64,000 nt of DNA from Candidatus Krumholzibacteriia bacterium (GCA_963836185.1 CAWIIQ010000001.1:485597-549596), one strand, 5' to 3'; shown: positions 2,978 through 49,529, numbered from the stretch's first letter. Notes: generated by a model not told the origin, from the sequence alone. Program-made: numbers and translations.

Positions 2978-3037
2978 TACGAGGTTTCAAGGTGATGAAC
3001 GAAAAGAAACGTACAGTCGACCATATGAGAGAGCGGC

Positions 3038-3271
3038 GTGAGGTCCCCTCCGAAGCGAAGGAGCGGGTCAAGAGATTACAACGCGATAAAGAGGGCGATA
3101 AAGAAGGCCCTGGAGGGCGAGGAGCTGACGATACTCGAGATAGCGGAAAAGACGGGGATGGAGCCCGAAGATGTCACCTTCTACCTGATGACGATGAGGA
3201 AGTTCGGCGAGGTCGAGTTCGTCGATGACGATGATGTGGACGATTATTACAGCTACAGGATAAAGGAATGA
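3038..3271 (+). CDS. small acidic hypothetical protein (77 aa, GTG start), possibly winged-helix-like, sitting between the hdrA-like and qmoC-like genes
   Basis: The ORF fills the gap between the two genes and ends 5 bp before the next start. Acidic C-terminus 'FVDDDDVDDYY'. No recognisable family. Confidence 0.3.
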   Translation: MRSPPKRRSGSRDYNAIKRAIKKALEGEELTILEIAEKTGMEPEDVTFYLMTMRKFGEVEFVDDDDVDDYYSYRIKE

Positions 3272-3275
3272 CCGG

Positions 3276-5631: not shown

Positions 5632-5639
5632 CGCCGCCT

Positions 5640-18347: not shown

Positions 18348-19769
18348 CTACCTGACCAGCTTGACACCCTTTCCGTCGACAAATCCCTTCGCTATCTCCC
18401 ACGCCTTGTCCCTGGTCGTCACGTCCGGGTAGTCCGGCAGGCCGGTGATACCCTTCGCGGCGAACATCCGCGCGACTTCGAGGCGGACCTTGTGGGCTTC
18501 AACTGCCGACTCGCCGACTATCCGCAGGTATTCCTGCGGGGCGTGGAAGCCCATCCCGTTGTTCGAGGAGCAGTAGTCCCACCTGAACTGGGCGTGGCGG
18601 AGCATCTGCCTGATGCCGTAAAGCTCATCGTCGGTCGCACCTGCCTGGACAGCTGCCGCGACGTCGAAGTGGGCCCTTACGAGCGCGTCCTCCGCTGCCA
18701 TCCTCGCGTTGAAGCACCTCGTCTGGATCTCCTCGACGCGGCTCTTGACCTCTTCTTCTGTCCAGCGGTGGCAGACCGCGCAGCTGTTTGCGATGTTCAG
18801 CAGCGGGCTCTGAGCGTGGTGGTCGGAGTGCTTGACGCCGCCTTCGGCAACGTAAGGCATGTGGCAGTCGGCGCACGAGACGTTCCTGTATGCGTGGATA
18901 CCCATCGAGAACATCTCGTAGTCGGGGTGCTGCGACTTGATGATCGGCGTGCCAGATACGGGGTGGACCCAGTCGTGGAAAGCGTATTCGTCGTAGTACT
19001 CGATCATGTCGTCGACCGTCTTCCCCTTTTCCCACGGGAAGGTCAGATAGGCCTTCTTTCCCTCCGCTTCATCATTGAGAAAGTAGTACTCGACGTGGCA
19101 CTGCGCGCAGACGAGCGAACGCATCTCCTGGTGGGTCGCGTCGTCTATGTCCTGTCCCGCCGCGGCGAACGCCTCCCTCAGCGCGGGCCGGGTGATGATA
19201 AGGCCCATCGTCTCGGGATCGTGGCAGTCGCGGCAGCCGATAGGATTGACGATCTCGTCCTTGAGGTCATGGAAGTTCGAGGCGTAGAACTCCCTGATGC
19301 CCATCTTCTCCATCATCCGTGGGACATCGGGGCTCTTGCAGGTCCAGCATGTCGCTTCGTTGAAAGGGGTCTTGATCCGTTTCGTGTTCGTAACATCGTC
19401 GATCGCGTGGTAATGGCCCCTGGCCTGGAGGTAATCCTTACTGAATCCGTACCCGGCAAAGAGGATCACCTGTAAGGGATCGTCCTCGAGGTAGTCGCGC
19501 GGGTATGCCCCGCCGAATTTTGTCTCTGTATCGTCGATCTGAGTCCTCAGCCACGAATCGTACTCACTGGGGTAGTTCTCTCCCCACACGGCGTTGTCCG
19601 TCTCCCACTCGTCGAGCGGGACGACGGCTATCGCGGGGCGCTGCGCCTCCCAGCGGTGCTCCATTATAGAGAAGCCGAGGATGCCGAGAAGCACGACGAC
19701 CACGGCGAGCAGTACGATGATAAGTGTCCCCGCCCAGAGGGGGAGTTTCGGGCTGGATTTGTCGCTCAT
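18348..19769 (-). CDS. nrfA: pentaheme cytochrome c552 nitrite reductase (ammonia-forming) NrfA
   Basis: CWTCK (the CxxCK active-site heme) plus four CxxCH motifs (CRDCH, CAQCH, CADCH, CAVCH). N-terminal membrane anchor. 473 aa. Confidence 0.85.
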   Translation of the reverse strand: MSDKSSPKLPLWAGTLIIVLLAVVVVLLGILGFSIMEHRWEAQRPAIAVVPLDEWETDNAVWGENYPSEYDSWLRTQIDDTETKFGGAYPRDYLEDDPLQVILFAGYGFSKDYLQARGHYHAIDDVTNTKRIKTPFNEATCWTCKSPDVPRMMEKMGIREFYASNFHDLKDEIVNPIGCRDCHDPETMGLIITRPALREAFAAAGQDIDDATHQEMRSLVCAQCHVEYYFLNDEAEGKKAYLTFPWEKGKTVDDMIEYYDEYAFHDWVHPVSGTPIIKSQHPDYEMFSMGIHAYRNVSCADCHMPYVAEGGVKHSDHHAQSPLLNIANSCAVCHRWTEEEVKSRVEEIQTRCFNARMAAEDALVRAHFDVAAAVQAGATDDELYGIRQMLRHAQFRWDYCSSNNGMGFHAPQEYLRIVGESAVEAHKVRLEVARMFAAKGITGLPDYPDVTTRDKAWEIAKGFVDGKGVKLVR

Positions 19770-20332
19770 CGATTCGATCCCTTTCTTTTTCGGCTTATGC
19801 CGGCCGGGGGTAATTTCGGCCTCAGCACGGCATCGGACGACGACAGGCTCTTTACTTGTATATGTATATTCGTATGGCAGTCCCAGCAGGTCCGTTCCCC
19901 GGACCCGGCGAGCCGGATCATCGAGAACGAGCTGCCGTGACAGCGCAGGCAGTTCTGCTGTATGACGGGGATGGCTTCATGCGAGAGCTCGATGACCTGC
20001 GGTTCGGCGCCTGCTGTGAAGATCGCAGAGTGCTTCATCCCGTCGGTTGCCTTGAAGCGGTTCATCGCGACGATATTCTGATGGGGGAGATGACAGTCTG
20101 TGCATACGGCCGCCGTGCCGTGGCTGCCCCGCTGCCAGCTCGCGTAGGCGTCGGTCATCACGTGGCAGTTGGCGCAGGTCTCCGGTTCCTTGTTGAGGTA
20201 CGACATCGCGCGTGAGGAGCGGATAAGCAGGGCAGCCATACCTATGGAGATTCCGGCCAGGGCGTAGATAGTCACCTGCATGCCTCGCGGCAGGCCTTCG
20301 AGCCTTAAGAGAGTTCTGATATAAGAGAGCAT
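19766..20332 (-). CDS. nrfH: tetraheme NapC/NirT-family quinol dehydrogenase NrfH
   Basis: N-terminal TM helix. Four CxxCH motifs (CANCH, CTDCH, CLRCH, CWDCH). 188 aa. Its stop overlaps the nrfA start. Confidence 0.8.
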   Translation of the reverse strand: MLSYIRTLLRLEGLPRGMQVTIYALAGISIGMAALLIRSSRAMSYLNKEPETCANCHVMTDAYASWQRGSHGTAAVCTDCHLPHQNIVAMNRFKATDGMKHSAIFTAGAEPQVIELSHEAIPVIQQNCLRCHGSSFSMIRLAGSGERTCWDCHTNIHIQVKSLSSSDAVLRPKLPPAGISRKRKGSNR

Positions 20333-21077: not shown

Positions 21078-22148
21078 ATGGGCCGGATCAGATTAGTCCT
21101 CGCGGATGGAACCCAGTTCAACGGTGAATCATTCGGCGCTCAAAAAGCCGTCAGCGGGGAAGTAGTTTTCAATACCGGGATGGTCGGCTACCCCGAAAGC
21201 CTCACAGATCCTTCATACCGCGGACAGATTCTCGTAATGACATATCCACTCGTCGGTAACTACGGAGTTCCGGGCGATGAGGCCGCCGACGGCATGCGGA
21301 AGTATTTCGAATCGGCGCGTATACAGGCGAGCGGGCTCGTTGTGGCCGAACATTCGACAGAGTACTCGCACTGGAACGCGGTGAAGTCACTTTCCGAATG
21401 GCTTTCGGAGGAGAGGATCCCCGGGATAAGCGGTATCGATACGCGAGCGCTTACCAGGCTCCTGCGGGAACGCGGGACCGTGCCGGGGAAGATCGTTCCG
21501 GCTGATGATCCAGGTTCAGCTGACATCCCCTTCGACGATCCGAATACGCGAAACCTCGTCGCCGAGGTGAGCGTCGGCGAACCGGTCCTCTACAGGCGGG
21601 GGCCGCGCAGGGTGGTGCTCGTCGACTGCGGCACGAAGAACAATATCGTCCGCTCATTCCTCAAAAGAGATATCACTGTCCTCAGGGTGCCTTGGGATCA
21701 TCCTTTCGATGAAGAGGAGGCGGACGGGTTCGTCCTCTCCAACGGCCCCGGTGATCCGAAGATGTGCGTCGAGACGATCGACCGCGCGAGGGAACTCCTC
21801 GGCGGCGATATCCCCGTGCTGGGGATCTGTCTCGGATCGCAGATCATGGCGCTGGCCGCGGGGGCCGATACATACAAGCTGAGGTACGGGCACAGAGGCC
21901 AGAACCAGCCCTGCGTCGAGTCGGGCACGAGGCGGTGCCGCATCACCTCGCAGAACCACGGGTATGCCGTTGACACGCGCACGATCCCGCAGGACTGGCG
22001 GGAGTGGTTCATCAACAGCAACGACGGGACGAACGAGGGGCTGGTGCATATCTCGAAACCGTTCTTCGGCGTGCAGTTCCACCCCGAAGCGTCGCCGGGG
22101 CCGGACGATACGGACTTTATCTTCGACATGTTCGTGAGGGCGCTATGA
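21078..22148 (+). CDS. carA: carbamoyl-phosphate synthase small (glutaminase) subunit
   Basis: 'VFNTGMVGYPESLTDPSYRGQILV', GATase 'LGICLGSQIMALA', '...QFHPEASPGP'. ATGA overlap with carB. Confidence 0.9.
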   Translation: MGRIRLVLADGTQFNGESFGAQKAVSGEVVFNTGMVGYPESLTDPSYRGQILVMTYPLVGNYGVPGDEAADGMRKYFESARIQASGLVVAEHSTEYSHWNAVKSLSEWLSEERIPGISGIDTRALTRLLRERGTVPGKIVPADDPGSADIPFDDPNTRNLVAEVSVGEPVLYRRGPRRVVLVDCGTKNNIVRSFLKRDITVLRVPWDHPFDEEEADGFVLSNGPGDPKMCVETIDRARELLGGDIPVLGICLGSQIMALAAGADTYKLRYGHRGQNQPCVESGTRRCRITSQNHGYAVDTRTIPQDWREWFINSNDGTNEGLVHISKPFFGVQFHPEASPGPDDTDFIFDMFVRAL

Positions 22149-25100
22149 TCGCTGCACGGGAAAAGCAGGTTAAGACGGTCCTGATACTCGGTTCGGGCGC
22201 TATACGTATCGGCCAGGCGGGCGAGTTCGACTACTCGGGCAGCCAGGCGATAAAGGCGCTGAAGGAGGAGGGCGTCAGGACGATCCTTATCAATCCGAAC
22301 ATCGCCACTATACAGACATCGGAGCAGCTAGCCGACGAGGTCTATTTTCTTCCCATCACGGCTGAGTTCGCCGAGAGAGTCATCGAGAAAGAAAGACCCG
22401 ACGGAATCCTCCTCGGATTCGGGGGGCAGACGGCCCTCAACGTAGGTGTCGAGCTCGCCGGTAACGGGGCCCTCGAGCGCCACGGCGTGCGTGTGCTGGG
22501 GACGCCGGTCGAGGCGATACTCAACACCGAGGACAGGGAACTGTTCACCGGCAAGCTGAACGAGATAGGCCTGAAGACTCCTTACGGGAAGGCTGTATCG
22601 AGTGTCGATGAGGCGGTCGCGGCGGCCCGTGAGGTCGGCTATCCGGTGATGTGCCGGATCGCGTACGCGCTCGGCGGCCTCGGATCGGGGATCGCCCGCG
22701 ACGAGAAAGACCTGATCCGCCTGGTGACCAAGGCCCTGTCGCACACCGACCAGGTCCTGGTAGAGGAATACCTCAAGGGGTGGAAAGAGATCGAGTACGA
22801 GGTCGTGCGCGATGAGGACGACAACTGCATCGTCGTCTGCACGATGGAGAACATCGATCCGATGGGGATCCACACCGGGGAGAGCATCGTCGTAGCCCCG
22901 ATGCAGACTCTCAGCGCCCGGGAATATTTCAATCTGCGCAAGATAGCGATTGAAACGATAAGGCACCTCGGGATCGTCGGCGAGTGCAACATACAGTATG
23001 CCCTCGACCCTCACTCGGAGGATTATCGCATAATAGAGGTCAACGCGAGGTTGAGCCGCAGTTCCGCTCTAGCGTCGAAGGCTACCGGCTACCCGCTCGC
23101 CGCTATCGCGGCGAAGCTAGCGCTGGGGCGCAGCCTGACAGAGCTTGAGAACGCCGTGACGAGAAGCACATCGGCATGCTTCGAACCGGCTCTTGACTAT
23201 ATAGTCCTGAAATATCCCCGCTGGGACCTGCAGAAGTTCAAGAACGTAAGCGAGTCGCTCGGCTCCGAGATGAAATCGGTCGGCGAGGTAATGGCGATGG
23301 GGAGGAGTTTCGAGGAGGTCCTGCAGAAGGCGATCCGGATGCTCGATGTGGGAGTGGCGGGACTGAATGGATTCAGGGATTATTTCGACGATATTGACGG
23401 CGAACTCGAGAAACCGACCGACAAGAGGCTCTTCGCGATCGCCGAGGCGATGCGTCGGGGCCGCTCCGTCGACGAGATCGCCGGCCTGACCGGTGTTAAC
23501 AGGTGGTTCCTTCACAAGATCCGGAACATCGTGGATGTGGAGCGCGAGTTTTCCGGCGTCGTCATCGATGATATGGATGAGGAACTGCTCCGCCGGGCGA
23601 AGAAAAAGGGCTTTTCCGATCTCCAGATAGCCGGACTGACCGGATGCTCCGGGGCCGAAGTGCGGGAGAAGAGAAAGAGTCTCTCGATTGAGCCGGTGAT
23701 CAAACAGATTGATACGCTCGCCGCCGAGTACCCGGCGCAGACGAATTACCTATACCTCACATATAACGGCACGGATGACGACATCGAGCTCACGTCGAAA
23801 AACAGCGTGGCAGTGATCGGCGGAGGGCCGTACAGGATCGGATCGTCTGTCGAGTTCGACTGGTGCTGCGTCAACTCGATCCTCACCCTGGCCGATCTCG
23901 GCTACAGCACGGTCATGATCAACTGCAATCCCGAGACGGTCAGCACCGATTACGATATATGCGACAGGCTCTATTTCGAGGAGCTCACGCTTGAGCGGGT
24001 CCTCGACATCTGCGAGAAGGAATCGCCCGCCGGCGTGATCGTTTCGATGGGAGGGCAGATCCCCAACAACATGGCTGCGGCCCTGTCTGAAGCGGGAGTG
24101 GCTGTTCGCGGCACCTCGCCCGGGGACATCAACCGGGCAGAGAACAGGCATGTCTTCTCGCGCCTGCTCGACGAGCTCGGGATCGTACAGCCTCCGTGGA
24201 AGGAGCTCACCAGCCTCGAAGAGGTCGAGGAGTTCGCGGACAGGATCGGGTACCCGGTGCTGATCCGGCCGAGCTTCGTTCTCAGCGGCGCCGCTATGAG
24301 TGTCGCGCTCAACAGGGACGAGCTGGCCGACTATCTCGAGAAGGCTTCGGACCTGGGCAGGGACCATCCCGTCGTCATCACAAAATTCATGACGGGGGCG
24401 AAAGAGATCGATATAGACGCCGTCGGGATGGATGGCGAGCTTTACTGTTATGCGATATCGGAGCATGTCGAGAATGCCGGCGTTCACTCGGGGGACGCAA
24501 CCCTCGTGCTGCCGCCGCAGAGGACCTACCTCGAGACGATGAGAAAGATCAAGACGATCGCCCGCAAGATCGCCCGGGCCCTGAATATCACAGGCCCGTT
24601 CAACATACAGTTCCTCGCCGTGAACAACGACGTCAGCGTGATCGAATGCAATCTGCGCGCTTCGAGGTCGTTCCCCTTCGTATCTAAGGTCTTCAGGATG
24701 AACTTTATCGACCTGGCGACGAGGATCATCATGGGCGAGAAGTTGCCCGGTATCGACAGGTCGTCGTTCGACCTCGACTACGTCGGAGTGAAGGCCCCGC
24801 AGTTTTCGTTCACAAGGCTGAAAGGCTCCGACCCCGTCACTGATGTCGAGATGACATCGACCGGTGAGGTCGCCTGCCTCGGCGACGATTTCAACGAAGC
24901 CTTCCTCAAGAGCCTCCTGTCGGTGGGATTCAGGATACCGGAGAGATCGGTGCTCGTGTCGGCAGGGCCTATCGACACCAAGGCGTACATGCTCGGAAGC
25001 GTCAAGGTCTTCGCCGATGCAGGCCTGAAGCTGTACGCGACCCGCGGTACGGCCGAGTTCCTCGATAAAAACGGGATCGAGGCGGAGATCCTGCGCTGGC

Positions 25101-25345
25101 CCCTGTCGAAGAAGAAGCCGGGAGCGATCGAGTATATCGCCGCGGGGGAAATCGATCTCGTCATCAACATCCCCAAGAACAATGAGCGCGACGAACTGGA
25201 CAACGATTATCTCATCAGGCGCGCCGCGGTCGATTTCGACGTGCCGCTTATCACAAACCGCCAGCTTGCGAAACGGTTCGCCGAAGCCCTGAGCAGCGGA
25301 GCCGCGTCCAGGCTGAAGGCGAAGAGCTGGAAAGAGTATGTCTGA
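22145..25345 (+). CDS. carB: carbamoyl-phosphate synthase large subunit
   Basis: 'KVLILGSGAIRIGQAGEFDYSGSQA', two ATP-grasp halves, an oligomerisation domain and an MGS-like C-terminus. About 1066 aa from the internal ATG (the ORF track's 22004 start is upstream read-through). Confidence 0.9.
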   Translation: MIAAREKQVKTVLILGSGAIRIGQAGEFDYSGSQAIKALKEEGVRTILINPNIATIQTSEQLADEVYFLPITAEFAERVIEKERPDGILLGFGGQTALNVGVELAGNGALERHGVRVLGTPVEAILNTEDRELFTGKLNEIGLKTPYGKAVSSVDEAVAAAREVGYPVMCRIAYALGGLGSGIARDEKDLIRLVTKALSHTDQVLVEEYLKGWKEIEYEVVRDEDDNCIVVCTMENIDPMGIHTGESIVVAPMQTLSAREYFNLRKIAIETIRHLGIVGECNIQYALDPHSEDYRIIEVNARLSRSSALASKATGYPLAAIAAKLALGRSLTELENAVTRSTSACFEPALDYIVLKYPRWDLQKFKNVSESLGSEMKSVGEVMAMGRSFEEVLQKAIRMLDVGVAGLNGFRDYFDDIDGELEKPTDKRLFAIAEAMRRGRSVDEIAGLTGVNRWFLHKIRNIVDVEREFSGVVIDDMDEELLRRAKKKGFSDLQIAGLTGCSGAEVREKRKSLSIEPVIKQIDTLAAEYPAQTNYLYLTYNGTDDDIELTSKNSVAVIGGGPYRIGSSVEFDWCCVNSILTLADLGYSTVMINCNPETVSTDYDICDRLYFEELTLERVLDICEKESPAGVIVSMGGQIPNNMAAALSEAGVAVRGTSPGDINRAENRHVFSRLLDELGIVQPPWKELTSLEEVEEFADRIGYPVLIRPSFVLSGAAMSVALNRDELADYLEKASDLGRDHPVVITKFMTGAKEIDIDAVGMDGELYCYAISEHVENAGVHSGDATLVLPPQRTYLETMRKIKTIARKIARALNITGPFNIQFLAVNNDVSVIECNLRASRSFPFVSKVFRMNFIDLATRIIMGEKLPGIDRSSFDLDYVGVKAPQFSFTRLKGSDPVTDVEMTSTGEVACLGDDFNEAFLKSLLSVGFRIPERSVLVSAGPIDTKAYMLGSVKVFADAGLKLYATRGTAEFLDKNGIEAEILRWPLSKKKPGAIEYIAAGEIDLVINIPKNNERDELDNDYLIRRAAVDFDVPLITNRQLAKRFAEALSSGAASRLKAKSWKEYV

Positions 25346-25355
25346 GGGTCGTCTG

Positions 25356-26774
25356 TCAGGCTTGCTTGAAATCCTCCTTGCGCAGGCCGTAACGCTTCAT
25401 CTTGTCGAACAGGCCTCTCGGGTGTATGCCAGCCATCTTCGCCGCCTCTCCCACTCGCCCATGACTCGCTTTCAGAACTCTCTCGAAGTATGTGCGTTCG
25501 AGGTTCTCCATGACGAGCCGCTTGAGTTCTGGCAGCGGCCTGTCAAGCCATTCGTCCTCGAAGTTCTGTATCAGGCTTTCGAGTGACGATTCCGAAGCCT
25601 GCCCGGCCGCGATGACCTGAGGCAGGTCGGCAGGGACGATCTCGTTCCCGTGACATAGAATCACGGCCCTCTCGAGTACATTGATCAGTTCCCTCACATT
25701 TCCAGGCCATCCGTAACTACTCAGCGCATTAAGGACCTCTTTGGAGATGCCCGTGATGTCTTTTTTCATCCTTACGCTGAGAATGTCGATGTAGTGGGCC
25801 GCCAGGGCAGGGATATCCTCTTTTCTGTTCCTCAATGGCGGCACGGTAAGCGTGATTACGCTGAGCCTGTAGTAGAGATCCTTGCGGAACAGCCCCGTCC
25901 TGATCTCATTTTCGATGTCACGGTTGGTTGCCGCTATGACTCTGGTGTCTACCCACATCGATTTTTCACTGCCCACCGGGCGTACCTCAAAATCCTGGAG
26001 AACGCGCAGCATCTTTGCCTGGAGGTGGATAGGAAGTTCCCCGATCTCATCGAGGAAGATCGTTCCCCCGTGAGCCATTTCGAACGCTCCGCGTCTCGAG
26101 CGCACCGCCCCGGTGAAGGCTCCTTCCTCGTGTCCGAACAGTTCGCTTTCAAGCAGCTGCTCCGGGAGGGAGGTGCAGTTTACCGCGACAAACGGTCCGG
26201 CCGAACGGGGCCCGTGTGAGTGGATGAACCTGGCGAGATGCTCCTTTCCTACGCCAGTTTCTCCCAGGGCCAGTATCGGGGCGCTGCTCGGGACGATCTT
26301 CAAGACCAGGTCCATGAAGATCTGCATCTGGGGTGAGTTGGAAACGAATTCCGCGATCCTGGGATAAGTCGTCTGGTACTTGCCGGAAAGGGGTTTTTCT
26401 GTAAGCTGACGGCGCGATTCGATCGTTGTCTCTATAGCCTCGAGCATGGTCTTCAGCGGCAGACTCGAGTACAGGACCACATCGGCGCCCTGCGCGACCA
26501 GGTTTGCGTTCTCTTCCTGGGATCTGCTGTCATGGAGAATGATCGTCGTGGGATTTTCGGGCAGATCGTTCAGCATCGCAATCGATGATTCTATCGGATT
26601 CGGCATCAGCGAGGAGCTGATTATCACTATATCGCCATTGGTACGTATCGCTTTCTGGAACGGATTCTTCAGGTGCCAGAAGCTTTCAACGGTCAAGTCA
26701 TGCCCCGACAGGTGCTTCCGTATCTTCTTGTCGAGCTCTTCGGTCTTGACGGCGATTACTACTCTCAGCAGCAT
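25356..26774 (-). CDS. sigma-54-dependent transcriptional activator (NtrC/Fis-family enhancer-binding protein) with an atypical N-terminal receiver-like domain
   Basis: AAA+ sigma54-interaction core 'ILALGETGVGKEHLARFIH', 'GAFTGA', 'GTIFLDEIGELP', 'ELINVLERAVIL'. C-terminal Fis-type HTH. The N-terminal domain lacks the canonical DD acidic pocket. Confidence 0.8.
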   Translation of the reverse strand: MLLRVVIAVKTEELDKKIRKHLSGHDLTVESFWHLKNPFQKAIRTNGDIVIISSSLMPNPIESSIAMLNDLPENPTTIILHDSRSQEENANLVAQGADVVLYSSLPLKTMLEAIETTIESRRQLTEKPLSGKYQTTYPRIAEFVSNSPQMQIFMDLVLKIVPSSAPILALGETGVGKEHLARFIHSHGPRSAGPFVAVNCTSLPEQLLESELFGHEEGAFTGAVRSRRGAFEMAHGGTIFLDEIGELPIHLQAKMLRVLQDFEVRPVGSEKSMWVDTRVIAATNRDIENEIRTGLFRKDLYYRLSVITLTVPPLRNRKEDIPALAAHYIDILSVRMKKDITGISKEVLNALSSYGWPGNVRELINVLERAVILCHGNEIVPADLPQVIAAGQASESSLESLIQNFEDEWLDRPLPELKRLVMENLERTYFERVLKASHGRVGEAAKMAGIHPRGLFDKMKRYGLRKEDFKQA

Positions 26775-26995
26775 TTCAGCTCCTTTCCATGAAATAATCA
26801 GTATATATATACCTGTTATCCAGGCCGGCCAATTACATCGTAATATCCTGTATTATACGTCCTTATATGCAATAAATCGTATTCATAAGCCATATCAGAT
26901 TCTGATATGAAGATTAAGGAATGAATAACGGTAACATTATACATGAAAATAGAATTAAAAGGTATAAATATACAGATAATTGAGAATCACCCGGG

Positions 26996-27010
26996 CGGTT
27001 GATTTTGCAT
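26996..27010 (+). promoter_or_regulatory. weak sigma54-like -24/-12 element (cGGttgattttGCat), spacing off by one or two from canonical
   Basis: GG and GC are separated by 10 bp rather than the canonical 12, and the flanks match poorly. Recorded only because the neighbouring gene encodes an enhancer-binding protein. Confidence 0.15.
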
Positions 27011-27169
27011 AACATCTTATCAATCAATAAGATAACGAGATGATACGTTTTCTTGGAAAATGGCTTGTAATATGCGTATACCCCGAATCGATCGTACAAT
27101 CCGCAAGATGGACCCGCGTTTCATATGCGGCGAGGCATTCAGAACGGAAAGGAACAGAGATAGACGGTT

Positions 27170-27388
27170 ATGGATAGCTTATCAAGAAGGCCTGATGATT
27201 CCGATGATCTCGATTTCGGGGATGACTGGTCTGATGATGATTTCATCGATCCAGACGACATTCCACTGCTTCCCACCAAGGAACAGCGCGAACTGGACGA
27301 ATATCTCGAGAGAAAAGAGAAAAAGCGCAAGCTTAAGAAAAGGCGCAAGGAGAAACATGACAGACATCGCGATGGCTGGGATGACTGA
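27170..27388 (+). CDS. hypothetical 72-aa highly charged protein (acidic N-half, Lys/Arg-rich C-half, ending ...DGWDD) in the AT-rich leader of the SpeH-like operon
   Basis: Open frame 'MDSLSRRPDDSDDLDFGDDWSDDDFIDPDDIPLLPTKEQRELDEYLERKEKKRKLKKRRKEKHDRHRDGWDD'. Weak RBS. Codon usage is atypical for the window. It could be non-coding. Confidence 0.25.
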   Translation: MDSLSRRPDDSDDLDFGDDWSDDDFIDPDDIPLLPTKEQRELDEYLERKEKKRKLKKRRKEKHDRHRDGWDD

Positions 27389-27455
27389 AGCAACGGATGT
27401 CCGGGATTCAGTCTCTGAGCCTCTTTCGTACATCGTGAAAGGAAATATCGATCCG

Positions 27456-27854
27456 ATGAAAAACGATGAAACCTGGTTCGGGCAGGGCCGGGAGGCCCCG
27501 GCCGATGTCTGGGGCCTCGCGTCCAGCATAGACATCTACGGATGTGATCCGGATGCTATCAGGGACGCTGACCTGATAAGGAGATTTACCGCCGAGTTGT
27601 GTGATCTCATCGAGATGAAGCGGTTCGGCGAGACACAGGTAGTCCACTTTGGTGAGGATGAGAAGGTCGCGGGGTACTCGATGGTCCAGCTGATAGAGAC
27701 GTCGCTGATCTCAGCTCATTTCGCCAACCAGTCGAATGCCGTATATCTCGACGTGTTCAGCTGTAAATCCTACGACCCCGATACGGTGCGGGAGTTCGCG
27801 CGTAAATATTTCGGCGGGCAGCATACCATCATGAATGTCAACTACAGGCGCTAG
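27456..27854 (+). CDS. pyruvoyl-dependent S-adenosylmethionine decarboxylase / arginine decarboxylase family proenzyme (SpeH-like, about 132 aa)
   Basis: RBS AAAGGAAAT plus ATG at 27456. 'DIYGCDP' (compare SpeH 'ELYGCDP'), 'LIETSLISAHF' (the ES self-cleavage/pyruvoyl site) and 'YLDVFSCK' (compare 'AVDIFTCG'). The ORF-track 27060 start is implausible read-through. Confidence 0.7.
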   Translation: MKNDETWFGQGREAPADVWGLASSIDIYGCDPDAIRDADLIRRFTAELCDLIEMKRFGETQVVHFGEDEKVAGYSMVQLIETSLISAHFANQSNAVYLDVFSCKSYDPDTVREFARKYFGGQHTIMNVNYRR

Positions 27855-27857
27855 GAA

Positions 27858-28823
27858 ATGAATATACGCACGAGCTGCGATCTCGAAGAAGCCGGCAGGG
27901 TCTGGCGTGAACTCTGGCCTGCCGAGGATGTCTTCGATTGCTGGGAAGTACGTGAATGCTTCCAGAAGAGCTTCGGCCGCCCGATTCATTTTATTATTGC
28001 AGAGTCAAACGGCAGACCCGCCGGTTTCATCGGACTCAGCTGGATAGATGAGGAGGGTTACTACGGACAGTTCCCCGGTGAGACATGGAGGGGCAGGACA
28101 TGGTTCGAGCAGAACCGGATCCCAGCCAGCTCCGACATCGTGAGAATGATGCTCTGGGACGCCGCGCCCGGCGACACGAAGCTTCGCTATCTCGTCGCCG
28201 ATTCCGGCGGGCTGCTTCCAGGAAGCACAGTCGATGAGACCGGATATATTTTCCGTCCGCCGCAGTACGGTTACGATTTCGAAAGATACTGGAATGCGTA
28301 TTCCGGCAAATCGCGGAAGAAGATCGGTCGGGAGATCGAAGCTCTGGGAGACCTCACATACTCGTATGACAGAGTTGATTCAGGGGACATCGAGTGGATG
28401 TTCGATACGAACAAGGCGAATTTCGGGGCCGATTCATACTTCGAAGATCCACGGTTTCTCGATGGTTTTGAGTCACTGATCTCGCTTTTATCAGAAAAAG
28501 GCATGCTGCGTGTCTCAAAGGTAAGTCTGAAGGGCAGGCGAGCCGCCGTTGACGTAGGAGCAGTATGCGGGGGACGGTATACAGTGCTGGCGGGGGCCAC
28601 CGACCCGGAACTGCGAGGGGTCGCGAAAGCGATCAACCTTTTTCATATTAAATGGGGATGCCGGTTGCGGGTCGATCAGATCGACTTTCTTTGCGGGGAT
28701 TTTGGATGGAAGAGACGCTTTCACCTCGAGCCGCGTCCCTTATTCCTGTCGACAAAGGCCGTTTCCGGGGCAGCAGTCGTGACTTCGGAAAAGAGAAAGG
28801 TCGAAAGTGTCATCGCATGTTGA
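27858..28823 (+). CDS. FemAB-like / GNAT-fold (Acetyltransf_6-type) acyl- or aminoacyl-transferase
   Basis: 321 aa. Starts 4 bp after the SpeH-like stop. The C-terminal half ('RVSKVSLKGRRAAVDVGAVCGGRYTVLAGATDPE...INLFHIKWGCRL') resembles BioF2-like/FemAB-like GNAT proteins. Assigned from memory of the family, not from a search. Confidence 0.4.
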   Translation: MNIRTSCDLEEAGRVWRELWPAEDVFDCWEVRECFQKSFGRPIHFIIAESNGRPAGFIGLSWIDEEGYYGQFPGETWRGRTWFEQNRIPASSDIVRMMLWDAAPGDTKLRYLVADSGGLLPGSTVDETGYIFRPPQYGYDFERYWNAYSGKSRKKIGREIEALGDLTYSYDRVDSGDIEWMFDTNKANFGADSYFEDPRFLDGFESLISLLSEKGMLRVSKVSLKGRRAAVDVGAVCGGRYTVLAGATDPELRGVAKAINLFHIKWGCRLRVDQIDFLCGDFGWKRRFHLEPRPLFLSTKAVSGAAVVTSEKRKVESVIAC

Positions 28824-30078
28824 TCCGGTGATCGTAGTCGGGACTACAGCTGACTATGTCGAGAGGATCGGCGAGAGGATGCCGGAGAGAACCATATTTC
28901 TTTCCGACCTCGATATATATGCGGATTCGTTACGTTCCATGCCCGCGAGAGTATACCAGGTCTTCTCATCGCTCCGCGATCCGGACGAGTCATTCTCCAG
29001 ACTGCGGAGATTCATGGATGATAAGGGGCTCAGCCCCGGAGGCGTAGCGTGCTTTGACTGCGAATCTCTTCTTCTCGCCGCCGATATCGCGCGGAGATTA
29101 TCTCTGCCTTTTCCCACATGGGAAGCCGTGATGAACACTCGCGACAAGCTCATCTCGAGGAGGCTGTGGCACGAGAATGGGATCAAGTGCCCCAGGGCAA
29201 TAACGGCGCGTGACGAGGATGACGTGAGAGCTTTCATAGAGATAATGGACCGTGCCGTTGTCCTGAAACCGGCCACGCTCAGCGGAAGCGAGCTGACTTT
29301 CGTATGTGAAAGGCCCGAAGACGCAGTCGAAGCGTTTCGTGTGATAAGAGACGGTCTTCGCCGGAGAGTGACCGACAAGACACTCAACAGGGACCGCATA
29401 GTCGACGAGAACATTGTCTTATGTGAGGAATATATAGATGGGCACGAATACAGCTGCGATTTTATCAGTGACAAACATGAGACAAAGATCATAAGGACGG
29501 CCCGAAAGTATCTGATGGAAGAGGGACCCGCCGGAACAGCGCAGGCGTATGAAGTGCCGGGGATGTCGCGTGAAAAAGCGGACGCGATCGATCTCGCCGG
29601 ACGTGTATCAAGAGCCGCCAGGGTGCTGGGGCTGGAGCGCTGCCAGGGGATGGCTGATTTCATCATGAGGGCTGGAGCGCCGTATTTTCTGGAGATAACA
29701 CCGAGGCCCGGGGGCGATTGCCTGCCGCAGATAATAGAGCATAGCTGCGGCATGGATATGCTCGGGACACATATCGATTTCTCGGCAGGAAGAAAACCGC
29801 GGATAGTTCCTGAGAAAGACTGGAAACATACCGTTGGACTCAGGATCCACGCGAAGAGGCGGGGGCGCCTGTCGGCGATCCGTCTCTGGGCCGACCGAGT
29901 CCGGCAGGAGATCCTGGAGACAGGATGGTACAGGGAACCGGGAGACAGGATCGGATTGCCGCCTGAAGACTACAGGACATGGGTCATAGGCCATGTGATC
30001 TTCAGGCCGCTTCAAGGAGTGGCCGTATCCGATCAGATCGAGGATCTGATGGAAGCGGTCGAGATCAGGATAGAGTAA
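28807..30078 (+). CDS. ATP-grasp family carboxylate-amine ligase
   Basis: 'VVLKPATLSGSELTFVC', 'CEEYIDGHEYSCDF', 'YFLEITPRPGGDCLPQI'. 423 aa. Overlaps the previous gene by 17 bp. Confidence 0.7.
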   Translation: MSSHVDPVIVVGTTADYVERIGERMPERTIFLSDLDIYADSLRSMPARVYQVFSSLRDPDESFSRLRRFMDDKGLSPGGVACFDCESLLLAADIARRLSLPFPTWEAVMNTRDKLISRRLWHENGIKCPRAITARDEDDVRAFIEIMDRAVVLKPATLSGSELTFVCERPEDAVEAFRVIRDGLRRRVTDKTLNRDRIVDENIVLCEEYIDGHEYSCDFISDKHETKIIRTARKYLMEEGPAGTAQAYEVPGMSREKADAIDLAGRVSRAARVLGLERCQGMADFIMRAGAPYFLEITPRPGGDCLPQIIEHSCGMDMLGTHIDFSAGRKPRIVPEKDWKHTVGLRIHAKRRGRLSAIRLWADRVRQEILETGWYREPGDRIGLPPEDYRTWVIGHVIFRPLQGVAVSDQIEDLMEAVEIRIE

Positions 30079-30090
30079 GGGTATTCAGCG

Positions 30091-31419
30091 ATGGCGGAAG
30101 AAAAGAATATGCTCGAACGGGCGCGGCTGATCTTGAGGCAGGATGTCCCGCCGATGGATCAGGGGCGTATGGAAAGATTCGTGGGGTCGTGCGTTTCACA
30201 GGCGGATCTCTTTCTGGATCTGCGGGAAAAACACGGAGCGCCTCTTTACATCGTCGATCGCGGCGGACTGGTAAACGAGTTCGAAAGAATGCGGGAAGCG
30301 TTCAAAGTACTTCCGGGCGAGGTCGAAATATTCTATGCCCTGAAAAGCAACAGTATGCCCGAGATCTCGGATATCCTCGCCGGCGCCGGCGCCGGCCTCG
30401 ATGTTTCGAGCGGAAAGGAACTGAGACTCGCGATAGAAGCGGGAGCGCGGTCGATAATATTCAGCGGACCGGGCAAGACGGATGACGAACTGGCCCTGGT
30501 GATCGATCATGCGGATCGTGTCACGCTGATGATAGACAGTTTCGGTGAGTTCGACCGGCTTGACCGGCTCACGCGGGAAAAAAGGAAAACGGTCAATGCA
30601 GGCGTACGGCTCACCGTGAATCCGACCGGTCTCTGGCGCAAGTTCGGGATCCCGCTCAAGGAGCTGGCCCGGTTTTTTGCCGGGGTTGACAGAAGCCCGT
30701 TCATCCAGTTCGAGGGATTGCAGTTTCATACGAGCTGGAACCTTACCCCTGAAGCGCATATATCATTTATCGGTGAACTGGGCGCGGCTCTGAAATCCCT
30801 GCCCGATATGATCTCGAGGGAGATCAGCTTCATCGATCTTGGAGGGGGGTTCTGGCCCGAGCACGGCGAGTGGCTTCGCGCCGGCGGCACAGAACCCGGC
30901 AGGTTGCGTAACCTCCTGATGCCGGAAAGGCCCGACACCTCGTCCAGATACATCCTGGAGAGCGCGGATATCAGTGAGTTTGCCGTAGGGATCGCGTCAG
31001 CGCTGGATAAGTCGCTTCCATCGTCGATTAACTGCCGATTCTTCATCGAACCGGGGCGCTGGCTCTGCCATCAGAACATGCACATCCTTCTGACAGTCGT
31101 AGATGTGAAGGCATCCGACATCGTGATAACAGATGCGGGCACTAATGCCATAGGGTGGGAAAGGTTCGAACACGACTATTTCCCCGTGATCAACCTGTCC
31201 GACCCGGATATCCGCGAGCATCCATGTCATGTCTTCGGATCGCTGTGCACTCCCCATGACGTATGGGGTTATTCGTATTTCGGCAGGGGGATCAGCAGGG
31301 GCGATGTGCTTCTTATACCCTCGCAGGGAGCCTATACGTACAGCCTCAGGCAGGAATTCATCAAGCCTCTCCCCGCTAAAGTCGTCGTGCAGGGCCCGCT
31401 CGATCTTCGCTGGTTGTGA
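30091..31419 (+). CDS. PLP-dependent decarboxylase of the Orn/DAP/Arg (alanine-racemase-fold, type III) family
   Basis: 'PLYIVDRGGL', 'IFYALKSNSMPEI' (PLP-Lys), 'GLDVSSGKEL', 'DLGGGF', 'EPGRWL', 'CHVFGSLCTPHD'. Confidence 0.75.
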   Translation: MAEEKNMLERARLILRQDVPPMDQGRMERFVGSCVSQADLFLDLREKHGAPLYIVDRGGLVNEFERMREAFKVLPGEVEIFYALKSNSMPEISDILAGAGAGLDVSSGKELRLAIEAGARSIIFSGPGKTDDELALVIDHADRVTLMIDSFGEFDRLDRLTREKRKTVNAGVRLTVNPTGLWRKFGIPLKELARFFAGVDRSPFIQFEGLQFHTSWNLTPEAHISFIGELGAALKSLPDMISREISFIDLGGGFWPEHGEWLRAGGTEPGRLRNLLMPERPDTSSRYILESADISEFAVGIASALDKSLPSSINCRFFIEPGRWLCHQNMHILLTVVDVKASDIVITDAGTNAIGWERFEHDYFPVINLSDPDIREHPCHVFGSLCTPHDVWGYSYFGRGISRGDVLLIPSQGAYTYSLRQEFIKPLPAKVVVQGPLDLRWL

Positions 31420-31564
31420 TAAATAGCGGTGCAGGACCCGCTCAGTGACGACCGGTATTTCGTTCAGGGCCCGCACGACTTTGACACGACAACTTTGAAT
31501 ATACAGGCGCCCCTCAGTGTATGTAGAATGAATCCAATCTCGTACACACACAAAGGAGGGCGCC

Positions 31565-32437
31565 ATGTTATTTTTTATAGGAGCTGCGGTCCTGTTCTTC
31601 TTCCTGATAGGCATCAGGATAGTCAGGCCCACTCACAGGGGGCTCGTCGAGAGGCTCGGAAAGTACAACCGCTTCGCTCAGCCGGGATTCCACTGGGTAT
31701 TTCCCCTGATCGAGCGGATGATCAGGATCAACGTCACCGAACAGATGGTCGACGCCCAGCCGCAGGAGATCATCACAAACGACAACCTCAACGCGCGAGT
31801 CGACGCCCAGGTATACTTCAAGGTCAAGAATGACGAAGAGAGCGTGAAGAGCTCGCAGTACAACGTCAACGACTACCAGTACCAGATAGTCAACCTCGCT
31901 CGCACGACGCTTCGTAACATCATCGGTACGCTGACCCTCAAGTCGGCGAACAGCGAGCGCGACAAGATCAACGGCGAGCTGCTCACAACGCTTGCCAACG
32001 AGACGAAGAACTGGGGTATGGAGATAGTCAGGACCGAGCTCAAGGAGATCGATCCTCCGAAGGATGTACAGGAGACGATGAACAAGGTCGTCAAGGCGGA
32101 GAACGAGAAGATCGCAGCGCTTGATTACGCCAACGCGGTGGAGCGCCAGGCGGACGGAACGAAGCGCTCCGAGATCAAGAAGGCCGAGGGCATCAGGCAG
32201 GCACGGATCCTCGCGGCCGAAGGAGAGGCCGAAGCGATCAGGCTCGTCAACGAGGCAGCGAACAAGTATTTCATCGGAAACGCGCAGATCCTAAGGAAGC
32301 TCGAGACGGTGGAGAACGCGCTGAAGAACAACGCGAAGATAGTCGTCCCTGCTGACTCGGAGCTGGTCAACGTCATCGGCGAGCTCGGCGGCGTCGTGCC
32401 GGTCGGAAGGAAGGGTGGCGCGGAGACGGAGGCGTAG
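31565..32437 (+). CDS. SPFH/band-7 (stomatin/prohibitin-like) membrane protein
   Basis: N-terminal TM helix, then 'IVRPTHRGLVERLGKYNRFAQPGFHWVFPLIE...' SPFH core. Ala/Glu-rich coiled-coil C-terminus. Confidence 0.8.
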   Translation: MLFFIGAAVLFFFLIGIRIVRPTHRGLVERLGKYNRFAQPGFHWVFPLIERMIRINVTEQMVDAQPQEIITNDNLNARVDAQVYFKVKNDEESVKSSQYNVNDYQYQIVNLARTTLRNIIGTLTLKSANSERDKINGELLTTLANETKNWGMEIVRTELKEIDPPKDVQETMNKVVKAENEKIAALDYANAVERQADGTKRSEIKKAEGIRQARILAAEGEAEAIRLVNEAANKYFIGNAQILRKLETVENALKNNAKIVVPADSELVNVIGELGGVVPVGRKGGAETEA

Positions 32438-47123: not shown

Positions 47124-49529
47124 TCATCTGAGCAGAGCCATCTTCCTCGTGATGATCGTTCCCGCAGCTTCGAGACGATAGAAGTAGATACCCGACGCTA
47201 CAGCCGATCCATCCCTGTCCGTACCGTTCCAGAAGGCGTCGTGGGAACCGGCCGTCTTCTGCTCATCCACGAGTATGTGCACGAGCCTTCCCGCGACATC
47301 GTAGACGGCCAGCCTGACGAAGCAGTCTCCCGGAAGTTCGTACCTGATCGTAGTGCTCGGATTGAACGGATTGGGATAGTTCTGCGCGAGGCGAACGTGG
47401 TCGACAGGAGGTATCTCCGTGCCGGTAGTGGTCAACTCGAGTTCTACCGGGATTTCAACCTGGTACGGCGAGCCGCATACGTCCTCGAACTCGACATCTA
47501 GCGTCACGGTGAAGGGGCCACCGGGGTAGGCGGACATGTCGAGCGTATATGTGTCTCCATTGCCGAATTCCGTGATGTCGAGCGGGATGAGGCCGTAATC
47601 CGCAGTGGAGTCAGGGAGGGTGAGCCATCCCGGTCCGTATTTCATCGTCGCGGAGACGTTGTAGGCGATACGGATGCCGGTGTTCTTCAGGCCCGCTTCG
47701 ATCTCCCAGAGCGGGTCGCTCCACGAGACCTCGTTGTATCCAGCTTCGACGAGTACAGGCTGTCCACAGAACCTGTTGGGAACGCGGGCGATGTTCGATC
47801 CGTAGCTGACGTAGCAGCGTCTGTCCTGGAGCATCAGCGCTATGGAGTCTGGAGATCCCAGAGCGATGTAGACGTCGAAGTAGAGGCTGTCCAGCTCATC
47901 GGAAGAGTCGAGTTCCCCGAACTCACTGAGTGTCGCCCAGGTAGCGGCGTTCTGAAGCTCGAACCTTCCGCGGGAGTTGTCGGGAGCGAACGGATAGAGG
48001 TCCGGAGCCGGCTCGAACAGTTCCGATGGAACATCGCCGTTGTTATGCACCTCGACCCAGTACCGTTTGAAATCGGCCGTGCCGTGGGTGACGGTCTCAG
48101 TGTGGAATATTCTGATGTCGAGCTGCGGGACCCCGAGGTCGCATTCAGGCATCACTCGTCCACGGATGCAGAGGTCGCCTATGTTGTTGTCTCCCTGGTC
48201 CTGGGCTTCCCAGGTAGTGCCGGAGTTGCTGGCCCACGACCTGTTCGTCTCCATCGGTCCGAAATGATCGTGCGGCAGGCAGCCTTGCCAGCCGGGCGTG
48301 TTGAAACTTACGGCTATGAAGATCGGGTCGCTGCAGACGACATCTATCGATTCGGGGAGGTCTATGCTGTAGAATCCCGATTCCTGAAGCGAACCGTTGT
48401 ACGGGCCGCCGAGGATGTTCTGCGGATTGCCGCCGGAGAAATCGTCGTAGATCGTTATCGAGTAATTGCAGGGCTCTGAAGTCGTCCAGATATCCACCGC
48501 GTACAGAAAACCGCTCCAGTCGGGGATATGCTCGATCATTCCCCAGTCGGTATAGTCCGCCCACCCCGAGTACCAGTTATAACCGTATTCGTCGAGGTAG
48601 TAGATCTTCTCACGATCGTCATGGAACCTGTAGCGGGATATGACGGCGGAGTAGGAGCCGATCTTGGCGTCTCCGTATTTTATGTAGAAGTAGCCCGCGT
48701 CTCCCCACGATGTTCCCCACGAGTTCTTCACGATCCATGCGCCCTCGCCTCCGCAAAGTGTGTCGTTCCAGCCTACGATCAGGACGCTGTGGTTCGGGTC
48801 CTCCGTCCCGGAATAAGTGAGACAGGTGTCCGTATCGTACTCGTTGAACTCGGCCCAGCTGCTGTACATCGAGGTGATCACCGGGCCGTAAGTCATCACG
48901 GCGTTCTTAATTGCTTCTTCGTCAAGAGCAGTCACCGGCGGATCGCCTGTTATGGACCGGAATTCCCGCGCGTTGACCTGCAGGTACGGAGTCGCGTCAA
49001 AGCAGCCTGCCATGTTGGGGCAGGAGCCGGGGTATACGTCTGTGCTCTCATTGACCGCTCCGAGAAGTGAGAGGTAATTCGCGGCGATCCAGGCGTTTCC
49101 GCCGACATTGCAGTTGTACCCATACAAGTCGTAGAAACGGTTGTCGGCGCAGGAGACGACGTTGTACTCCGAATAGTCGCGGGTCAGTACCTGCTGGATG
49201 TGCAGGGCAGATTCAAGACAGCCGATAGTTGCGAATGCCCAGCAGGTGCCGTACGGATTCTGGTTCTTTACAGAAGTGACGTCGCCGCTTGTCCGCCAGT
49301 CCCATGCCAGGGGAGCCTGAGGCATCGACATCAGCTTTTCCGGAGTGGCGTGCAGGTGATGCATGTACATCGGCGGCGGTATGAATCCGCCCTTCCCGAT
49401 GTCGGCCGGGGCCGGCCTTTCCGGTCCGGTCCTCTGTTGTCCGGTATCCTGTGACGCGTAGAGAAAAGTCGCGGCCGCAGCGAGCAGGATCACTCCAGCA
49501 ACGATTGTGAAACCTTTGCGAGTCTTCAT
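47124..49529 (-). CDS. secreted papain-family (C1) cysteine peptidase with a T9SS sorting CTD
   Basis: 'NQNPYGTCWAFATIGCLESA' (catalytic Cys). 'HSVLIVGW' and 'AWIVKNSWGTSWGDAGYFYI' (His/Asn region). CTD 'NYPNPFNPSTTIRYEL...IYFYRLEA...KMALLR'. Confidence 0.8.
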   Translation of the reverse strand: MKTRKGFTIVAGVILLAAAATFLYASQDTGQQRTGPERPAPADIGKGGFIPPPMYMHHLHATPEKLMSMPQAPLAWDWRTSGDVTSVKNQNPYGTCWAFATIGCLESALHIQQVLTRDYSEYNVVSCADNRFYDLYGYNCNVGGNAWIAANYLSLLGAVNESTDVYPGSCPNMAGCFDATPYLQVNAREFRSITGDPPVTALDEEAIKNAVMTYGPVITSMYSSWAEFNEYDTDTCLTYSGTEDPNHSVLIVGWNDTLCGGEGAWIVKNSWGTSWGDAGYFYIKYGDAKIGSYSAVISRYRFHDDREKIYYLDEYGYNWYSGWADYTDWGMIEHIPDWSGFLYAVDIWTTSEPCNYSITIYDDFSGGNPQNILGGPYNGSLQESGFYSIDLPESIDVVCSDPIFIAVSFNTPGWQGCLPHDHFGPMETNRSWASNSGTTWEAQDQGDNNIGDLCIRGRVMPECDLGVPQLDIRIFHTETVTHGTADFKRYWVEVHNNGDVPSELFEPAPDLYPFAPDNSRGRFELQNAATWATLSEFGELDSSDELDSLYFDVYIALGSPDSIALMLQDRRCYVSYGSNIARVPNRFCGQPVLVEAGYNEVSWSDPLWEIEAGLKNTGIRIAYNVSATMKYGPGWLTLPDSTADYGLIPLDITEFGNGDTYTLDMSAYPGGPFTVTLDVEFEDVCGSPYQVEIPVELELTTTGTEIPPVDHVRLAQNYPNPFNPSTTIRYELPGDCFVRLAVYDVAGRLVHILVDEQKTAGSHDAFWNGTDRDGSAVASGIYFYRLEAAGTIITRKMALLR

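Follow-up and report, generated by a model that had tools for sequence, protein, structure and literature searches.

A recurrent four-enzyme cassette of anaerobic bacteria with a possible role in the synthesis of a putrescine-derived amide

A compact group of genes at positions 27170-31419 of a stretch of DNA from a Candidatus Krumholzibacteriia bacterium (GCA_963836185.1 CAWIIQ010000001.1:485597-549596; 64,000 nucleotides (nt), here referred to as the window, whose numbering is used throughout) was analyzed together with its relatives in other genomes. Calling of open reading frames (ORFs) found five, all on the + strand, running in the same direction and tightly packed as an operon. The first, recognized by ORF calling and conservation, is a mini-ORF of 72 amino acids (aa; 27170..27388). 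It is followed by genes for a pyruvoyl-dependent decarboxylase of the AdoMet_dc fold, most likely a SpeDC-type L-ornithine decarboxylase (27456..27854; PF02675, E 2e-24, 86 bits), a tandem-GNAT and probably Fem-type transferase (27858..28823; PF13480, E 6e-22), an ATP-grasp ligase of predicted L-amino-acid-ligase (LAL) type (28807..30078; PF02655 and PF13535, with a weak match to LAL_C2), and a fold-III decarboxylase of the Orn/DAP/Arg family that depends on pyridoxal phosphate (PLP; 30091..31419; PF02784 and PF00278). On the - strand, divergent to the operon, lies the gene for a 472-aa sigma-54 enhancer-binding protein (25356..26774; PF00158 with E 3e-66, AAA_lid_14 and HTH_8).

The Pfam assignments of the four enzymes all exceed the gathering score, and in this way profile searches bear out each of the enzyme families, as well as the divergent sigma-54 protein, named in an earlier note on this DNA. 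That note had also described overlaps of 4 and 17 bp between the genes. The 17-bp overlap joins the GNAT and ATP-grasp genes, but the 4-bp overlap was not found; the other junctions are gaps, of 3 nt between the decarboxylase stop at 27854 and the GNAT ATG at 27858, and of 12 nt between the ATP-grasp stop and the ATG of the PLP enzyme. The leader of ~680 bp (26775-27455) is AT-rich as claimed, with a GC content of 0.38-0.47 compared to ~0.55-0.60 around it, with the qualification that the mini-ORF lies inside it.

Relatives of the ATP-grasp protein were collected in a one-genome-per-species scan with an alignment as query, the best 80 loci were fetched, and every ORF in them was searched with the window proteins. 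Hundreds of unnamed proteins are related to the ATP-grasp protein, and at least 368 species-level genomes carry a relative. Among the 80 best loci the order pyruvoyl decarboxylase, GNAT, ATP-grasp, PLP decarboxylase was kept in 63, spread over at least 10 phyla, and a further 12 held the three-gene core of GNAT, ATP-grasp and PLP enzyme without the SpeDC gene; contig ends interrupt four of the loci. Record titles assign them to Desulfobacterota, Omnitrophota, Planctomycetota, Zixibacteria, Krumholzibacteriota and Ignavibacteriales, and also to Fibrobacteraceae, Lentisphaeria, Nitrospirota, Verrucomicrobiota and Hydrogenedentota, with a single cultured strain, Dethiosulfatarculus sandiegensis SPR (L049). 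The enzyme set recurs across hundreds of anaerobic bacterial species in many phyla, and an arrangement shared in order by 63 of 80 loci is well beyond chance. In two loci neighboring genes have merged into a single reading frame, GNAT with ATP-grasp in L065 (L065:5999-8278, 760 aa) and ATP-grasp with PLP decarboxylase in L068 (L068:6980-9550, 857 aa), and these natural fusions indicate that the enzyme steps are coupled.

When all neighboring ORFs of the 80 loci were clustered, the only recurrent neighbors besides the cassette genes were regulators, and no conserved transporters, proteases or further enzymes were found beside it. Two less frequent families were observed at the cassette borders. 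A standalone Peptidase_C39-like protein of ~245 aa with the motif STCGPTCLH adjoins the cassette in six loci (L017:9753-10478, L039:9660-10397, L046:6759-7523, L048:9545-10267, L063:4538-5281 and L071:3200-3964), and a Cys-containing family of 195 aa (YDCVPT), for which there was no Pfam match, does so in L044, L059, L060 and L085.

The pyruvoyl enzyme is, as judged from its sequence, most likely a self-processing SpeDC-type decarboxylase that converts L-ornithine to putrescine. SpeDC enzymes are L-ornithine decarboxylases derived from class 1b S-adenosylmethionine decarboxylase (AdoMetDC) and form a known class of polyamine enzymes (Li et al., J Biol Chem 2023, PMC10407285). The PF02675 match spans profile positions 4-104 of 107, and an alignment of 17 family members from several phyla has a mean column identity of 64%, with SMxQLIETSLISAHFAN..Y.DVFSCK invariant. 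The catalytic residues, by T. maritima numbering, are Ser63 (the pyruvoyl precursor), His68 and Cys83 (PMC10407285). With the register taken from alignment to the AdoMetDC motif and from PF02675 coverage, their equivalents are present, and invariant, in all 17 members. In the same paper four residues of the central region, Gln, Thr, Phe and Tyr, are given as diagnostic for the ornithine decarboxylase group (PMC10407285); matched by their order, all four occur, in sequence and invariant, in Q-LIE-T-S-LISAH-F-ANQSNAV-Y-LDVFSC.

Further support comes from locus L058 (Desulfobacula), where a canonical SpeD domain (AESHFTIHAWPE) is fused to a second domain (4745-5671, - strand). Read from MLDKNI, the fusion has 278 aa, with processing serines at 79 and 229. 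In its length and in Ser79/Ser229 it has the same architecture as SpeD1SpeD2 of Desulfotignum phosphitoxidans, a protein with a C-terminal domain demonstrated to be an L-ornithine decarboxylase (PMC10407285). Over 114 aa, the window enzyme and the C-terminal domain of the L058 fusion are 58% identical, a comparison in which the fusion stands in for the characterized protein. Divergent to the fusion, L058:6609-9539 carries a version of the cassette that lacks the GNAT and consists of a charged small ORF (ending DSDNDWPE), an ATP-grasp gene and a PLP decarboxylase gene. A second SpeDC-like copy (E 4e-52 to the window protein) was observed ~3 kb 3' of the cassette in an Omnitrophota locus (L019:12421-12831).

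The earlier note had called this protein a SpeH-like pyruvoyl enzyme of the AdoMetDC/ArgDC family. The family stands, but AdoMetDC proper (SpeD/SpeH) does not: the TIGR03330 score is 27.7 bits compared to a cutoff of 75.65, Thr instead of Glu precedes the processing Ser, HFAN is found where true AdoMetDC, marked by a conserved Pro, has HTWPE, and neither the cassette nor those parts of the window that were scanned encode a SpeE partner, in line with the note's remark that an aminopropyltransferase is missing. The more exact SpeDC-type identity strengthens the idea of a conjugated polyamine raised in that note. The SpeDC genes described in the literature lie in clusters with speD/speE, casdh/casdc or hss (PMC10407285). 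The window enzyme shares with these SpeDC proteins the central motif, the catalytic Ser/His/Cys and the Gln/Thr/Phe/Tyr set, but it is encoded beside a Fem-type GNAT, an L-amino-acid ligase and a fold-III decarboxylase other than LysA, a context absent from PMC10407285. Sequence searches found no relatives of solved structure for the pyruvoyl enzyme, even with the family profile, although Pfam does recognize it. Two start codons are plausible within the stop-to-stop ORF, which begins at 27060 and ends at 27854. ATG 27456 gives 132 aa, the usual length of the family (127-149 aa among the aligned sequences), and ATG 27357, preceded by a strong ribosome-binding site (AAGGAG), gives 165 aa with a 32-nt overlap with the mini-ORF.

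The PLP enzyme retains the PLP lysine, the His, the GGG loop, EPGR, Cys and GAY, and aligns over its full length with BtrK and with the N-citrylornithine decarboxylase FslC. One of its motifs reads GSLCTPHD, as it does invariantly in 66 of 73 relatives, and is closer to GPSCMQHD of FslC than to GPxCE(S/T)GD of LysA, and this likeness hints at a substrate with an acylated distal amine. Diaminopimelate decarboxylase LysA was rejected as its identity, with a TIGR01048 score of 139 bits compared to the cutoff of 297.9 and with the substrate motif C-E-(S/T)-G-D replaced by C-T-P-H-D in the same 66 of 73 relatives. The other NCBIfam scores were also far under cutoff (nspC 45 vs. 409, FslC 67 vs. 500). 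In FslA/FslC (rhizoferrin), BtrJ/BtrK (butirosin side chain) and CASDH/CASDC, a fold-III decarboxylase acts on an amino acid that has already been joined to another moiety; FslC has the C-x-x-H-D motif in common with the window enzyme, and BtrJ is likewise an ATP-grasp enzyme. Unlike these systems, the cassette has no NIS synthetase, acyl carrier protein or dehydrogenase, its ligase is of the predicted L-amino-acid-ligase type, and a probably tRNA-dependent transferase and a predicted pyruvoyl ornithine decarboxylase are additional. A further parallel is the PEP-CTERM/exosortase A locus, where the TIGR03099 PLP decarboxylase is paired with a FemAB-family (PF13480-type) protein under a sigma-54 activator. 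The window enzyme scores 108 bits with TIGR03099 compared to a cutoff of 478, and exosortase, acyl-CoA ligase, acyl carrier protein and polysaccharide genes are absent from the cassette loci.

An AlphaFold (AF2) model of the ATP-grasp enzyme (predicted local distance difference test score, pLDDT, 90.3) was most similar in structure to ligases that form dipeptides from free amino acids, first of all BL00235, with template modeling (TM) scores of 0.80/0.82, followed by BacD/YwfE (0.75) and RizA (0.67); RimK and LysX were not the best matches. By this model the enzyme is of the L-amino-acid-ligase type, with LAL-type N- and C-terminal domains, and the assignment of an ATP-grasp ligase in the earlier note is made more specific. 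The Pfam match to LAL_C2 is weak, and among the NCBIfam LAL equivalogs the protein scores far under all cutoffs. GVACFDCE and PRPGGDCLP are invariant in the family.

The GNAT was modeled from 35 homologs (AF2, pLDDT 89.6) and is predicted to be a tandem GNAT, with two domains in a single chain. Its best PDB matches in Foldseek were the peptide synthases Sbb17/Sba18 (E 6e-12, TM 0.59/0.65), then FemX and MprF/A-PGS, all of them enzymes that depend on aminoacyl-tRNA. The top 22 matches comprised these proteins and one protein without known function, and tandem GNATs that use acetyl-CoA ranked lower. The model suggests that the enzyme is probably an aminoacyl-tRNA-dependent Fem-type transferase, which lends structural support to its earlier FemAB-like label. 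Sbb17/Sba18, which belong to glycylthricin-type streptothricins and act on streptothrisamine, FemX and MprF have the same predicted tandem-GNAT fold (E ~1e-11, TM ~0.6), but the window GNAT is only 10-17% identical to them, and neither its genomic surroundings nor its taxa have a relation to loci for streptothricin or peptidoglycan. Searches by sequence found no relatives of solved structure, and an exact look-up of the window GNAT and of P0020 returned no record. A dedicated tRNA for the Fem-type enzyme was not apparent, as tRNA genes are not conserved near the cassette in the 60 loci scanned. Three tandem tRNA-Gly(GCC) genes were observed 3' of the cassette in Dethiosulfatarculus sandiegensis (L049:10222-10522) and were absent in the other 59.

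The divergent activator has an atypical N-terminal domain without a Pfam match, and full-length orthologs (E<1e-100) lie divergent beside the cassette in 37 of the 80 loci, from several phyla; a TetR-like regulator was found in 19. This recurrence marks the enhancer-binding protein as a dedicated, if predicted, regulator of the cassette. A match to the sigma-54-type promoter consensus, TGGCTTGTAATATGCG with its -24 GG and -12 GC, lies on the + strand at 27061..27076, 94 nt before the mini-ORF, and would place the mini-ORF in the sigma-54 transcription unit. In a pattern scan, 33 of the 42 loci that have a divergent activator showed the -24/-12 pattern 5' of the unit's first gene; where the activator is missing, matches were rare and most of them lay at a distance. 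Further upstream are imperfect palindromes of the form (C)GGTAT-N-ATACC(G) at 26799-26815, 26927-26943 and 26958-26976 (repeats I1, I3, I5, D1 and D2), which are putative activator-binding sites (upstream activating sequences). A related palindrome, TCGGTA-N6-8-TACCGA, recurs in intergenic regions of other loci, where the k-mer ATACCGA occurs in 24 of 34, and the window versions are weaker. Taken together, the promoter match and the palindromes recurring in related loci argue for sigma-54-dependent transcription of the operon, and agree with the regulated operon that had been predicted. An Rfam scan of 26500-31800 found no riboswitch in the leader. The only match, RsmY-like and at 27316-27423 (18 bits, gathering score 57), over the purine-rich 3' end of the mini-ORF, is probably due to chance. 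Cyclic di-AMP riboswitches (RF00379, over the gathering score) were present in two Omnitrophota loci; in L019 (L019:4470-4597) the riboswitch is followed by the gene for a 137-aa secreted protein and then directly by the cassette, and in L022 (L022:365-492) it lies ~5 kb from the cassette.

The mini-ORF encodes a protein of which 60% is D, E, K or R. Its N-terminal half is acidic/aromatic (net charge -12), its C-terminal half is basic, and it ends in a short acidic tail, GWDD; it has no Cys and no Pfam match. Shuffling of the region gave an ORF of at least 72 codons in 6% of shuffles, so ORF length was dropped as evidence and the reality of the mini-ORF rests on conservation. Public records annotate the mini-ORF as a gene, and a homolog 75% identical to it differs mostly by D/E and K/R swaps. 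A word-indexed homology search recovered 2 proteins only, and an exhaustive HMMER search 8 true homologs of 66-83 aa plus one spurious long protein; the 8 have DPEDIP and EYLERKxKKRRQKxRRKEKHDKY in common. In ~22 activator-type loci, analogous small ORFs with no detectable homology but with the same plan lie between the sigma-54 promoter and the enzymes, with tails such as DWDD, EDWD or GDLD. Such ORFs, sought anywhere in the loci and on both strands, numbered 18, and 15 of these sit at the mini-ORF position. We read the mini-ORF, from these comparisons, as a real, fast-evolving gene, whose product may be an accessory limited to sigma-54-type loci and may serve as an acceptor, carrier or binding partner.

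Five Desulfobacteraceae loci have LysW-like proteins, zinc-ribbon proteins with a LysW domain, at the mini-ORF position, 3' of the sigma-54 promoter (L012:5094-5592, L014:3591-4090, L016:5056-5588, L008:5008-5181 and L018:5080-5289). The four that were scanned score 31-42 bits with PF21344 (cutoff 27), and the proteins have long acidic, aromatic tails. Their loci sometimes also encode a secreted PG_binding_1 protein 3' of the sigma-54 promoter. The LysW lysine pathway is not expected in the genomes that carry these loci.

From these enzymes we propose, as the best of the readings but tentatively and as somewhat short of probable, that the sigma-54-activated operon makes a small intracellular putrescine-derived amide of pseudo-peptide or aminoacyl-diamine type. 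The SpeDC-type enzyme would decarboxylate L-ornithine to putrescine, a supply step that would be dispensable where another source exists; the loss of SpeDC in 12 loci fits such a role. The ATP-grasp enzyme would then activate the carboxylate of an amino acid as an acyl-phosphate and couple it to an amine, and the fold-III PLP enzyme would strip the free alpha-carboxylate from the ligated amino-acid moiety, in the 'ligate, then decarboxylate' manner shared by carboxyspermidine decarboxylase, FslC and BtrK. Finally, the Fem-type tandem GNAT would transfer a further aminoacyl group from aminoacyl-tRNA to a free amine. Transcription would be driven by the divergent enhancer-binding protein acting at the upstream palindromes and the -24/-12 promoter, and in other lineages a TetR-type regulator would substitute for the activator. 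The absence of a conserved exporter suggests that the product is intracellular. What the analysis shows directly is the enzyme families and predicted folds, agreement with SpeDC by criteria of sequence, the conserved gene order, the link with the regulator and the promoter match; the order of the steps, the substrates besides ornithine and the product are inferred.

Several observations weigh against this proposal. Among the substrates only ornithine is backed by a direct criterion, and this by sequence similarity. The conservation of the pyruvoyl enzyme, at the mean column identity given above, exceeds what would be expected for a simple supply enzyme. Acidic-tailed small proteins or LysW-like proteins in the same transcription unit hint at a protein acceptor, and C39-like peptidase genes adjoin the cassette in six loci.

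These last points bear on a pathway built on a carrier or scaffold protein, which we regard as a rather doubtful possibility. Here the small acidic-tailed protein would be the acceptor, the ATP-grasp enzyme would load one of its carboxylates with an amino acid or with putrescine, and the decarboxylases and Fem-type transferase would act on the tethered group, to give a released amine or a permanently polyaminated protein. LysW is an amino-group carrier whose EDWGE tail is loaded by an ATP-grasp ligase (PMC10433800), and with LysW-model proteins at the mini-ORF position inside the sigma-54 unit of L008, L012, L014, L016 and L018, a carrier or acceptor role is attractive. The same can be said of the charged small ORFs with acidic aromatic tails, which lie just 5' of the enzymes in the ~22 activator-type loci and are largely confined to that position (15 of 18), the one in L058 directly before the ATP-grasp gene; the C39-like peptidases of six loci would also fit. 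However, no small ORF of this type was found in the 19 TetR-type loci, in about one third of the sigma-54-type loci or, with the exception of L022, in nearly all loci without a recognized regulator, which argues that it is not an obligatory substrate unless encoded elsewhere. The extreme C-terminus varies among close homologs (E, Y, D or G), unlike the terminal Glu of LysW, the ATP-grasp enzyme resembles ligases of free amino acids and not LysX/RimK (GSGSELT vs. GSWGR), and a PLP or pyruvoyl decarboxylase requires a free alpha-amine. A tblastn search of the window found no homologs of LysW-like, C39-like or PG-binding proteins.

For the window itself a carrier system of the LysW type was rejected, as the mini-protein has no zinc ribbon, EDWGE or conserved terminal Glu, and a LysX-type ligase likewise, with a LysX_arch score of 15 bits compared to a cutoff of 276 and with GSGSELT in place of GSWGR of LysX. 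As in LysW/LysX and ArgW/ArgX, the gene for an ATP-grasp ligase is accompanied in the cassette by that for a small protein whose tail is acidic and contains Trp, but no kinase, reductase, aminotransferase or hydrolase genes follow. The more specific notion of a new carrier or acceptor system, in which an intrinsically disordered acidic-tailed mini-protein (LysW-like in some lineages) is loaded by the LAL-type ATP-grasp enzyme and processed by the two decarboxylases and the tRNA-dependent transferase, is in our view unlikely, as is its outcome, a polyamine-like product built on a scaffold protein or a regulatory protein that is covalently polyaminated. A graspetide/microviridin-like RiPP, a peptide made on the ribosome and modified after translation, for which ATP-grasp, GNAT and a small peptide might speak, was rejected with a ligase that is LAL-type by structure and a small ORF that is absent from most loci.

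Peptidoglycan side chains are known to be built by two classes of enzymes, the Fem-type transferases and the ATP-grasp ligases, and the cassette could instead remodel a peptidoglycan precursor or another amine of the cell envelope, for example by side-chain addition through these two enzymes together with decarboxylation of a diamino-acid residue or attachment of putrescine. FemX is among the structural matches of the GNAT, several Desulfobacteraceae loci, and L005 as well, have the gene for a secreted PG_binding_1 protein in the same transcription unit, and in the Omnitrophota locus L019 the cyclic di-AMP riboswitch stands 5' of a secreted protein and the cassette. We consider envelope modification quite improbable, since the PG-binding gene occurs in few loci only, no conserved Mur, Pbp, flippase or lipid-carrier genes lie nearby, the riboswitch of L022 is distant from the cassette, and the best GNAT match, Sbb17, is a small-molecule enzyme. 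Ordinary metabolism, in which the genes would follow a modified form of some known pathway for polyamines, lysine or a siderophore (spermidine, homospermidine, diaminopimelate to lysine, or rhizoferrin-like) and their clustering would bring nothing new, is very improbable: SpeDC is a known polyamine enzyme class (PMC10407285), lysA is the best curated match of the PLP enzyme, which has a likeness to FslC of rhizoferrin synthesis as well, but the lysA, nspC and FslC scores fall far under their cutoffs, the LysA substrate motif is replaced, SpeE, CASDH, HSS/SpeY and NIS synthetase are missing from the cassette and its conserved neighbors, and the SpeDC cluster types in PMC10407285 are others.

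Elsewhere in the window, at 126-4424, 18348-20332 and 21078-25345, are genes for heterodisulfide-reductase-like Fe-S/FAD oxidoreductases, for a cytochrome c552 nitrite reductase with a NapC/NirT partner (NrfAH-like) and for the small and large chains of carbamoyl-phosphate synthase, which fit an anaerobic, nitrite-ammonifying organism. Two large proteins (7689-9629 and 47124-49529) carry at their C-terminus a domain of FlgD_ig type that could be a shared C-terminal sorting or secretion tag; a papain-family protease that has a lectin-like domain is one of the two.

The view in the earlier note that this is not a textbook pathway holds: the cassette matched no NCBIfam equivalog, no PADLOC defence-system model and no description in searches of open-access full text. 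Since all its parts come from known enzyme families, we regard it as a small amide-forming, decarboxylating operon tied to polyamine metabolism, and not as something categorically new. Polyamine metabolism is poorly mapped in the anaerobic and candidate phyla in which the cassette recurs, among them Desulfobacterota, Omnitrophota, Planctomycetota, Zixibacteria and Krumholzibacteriota. Here a compact four-enzyme module with its own predicted regulator appears to join a pyruvoyl ornithine decarboxylase of a class recognized only recently, ATP-dependent and tRNA-dependent amide chemistries and a conjugate-type decarboxylase, and it is compact enough for direct testing by heterologous expression. 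If the mini-protein were the acceptor, the module would represent a new carrier-protein logic; if it makes a new putrescine conjugate, this would be a widespread metabolite and a new extra-translational use of aminoacyl-tRNA.

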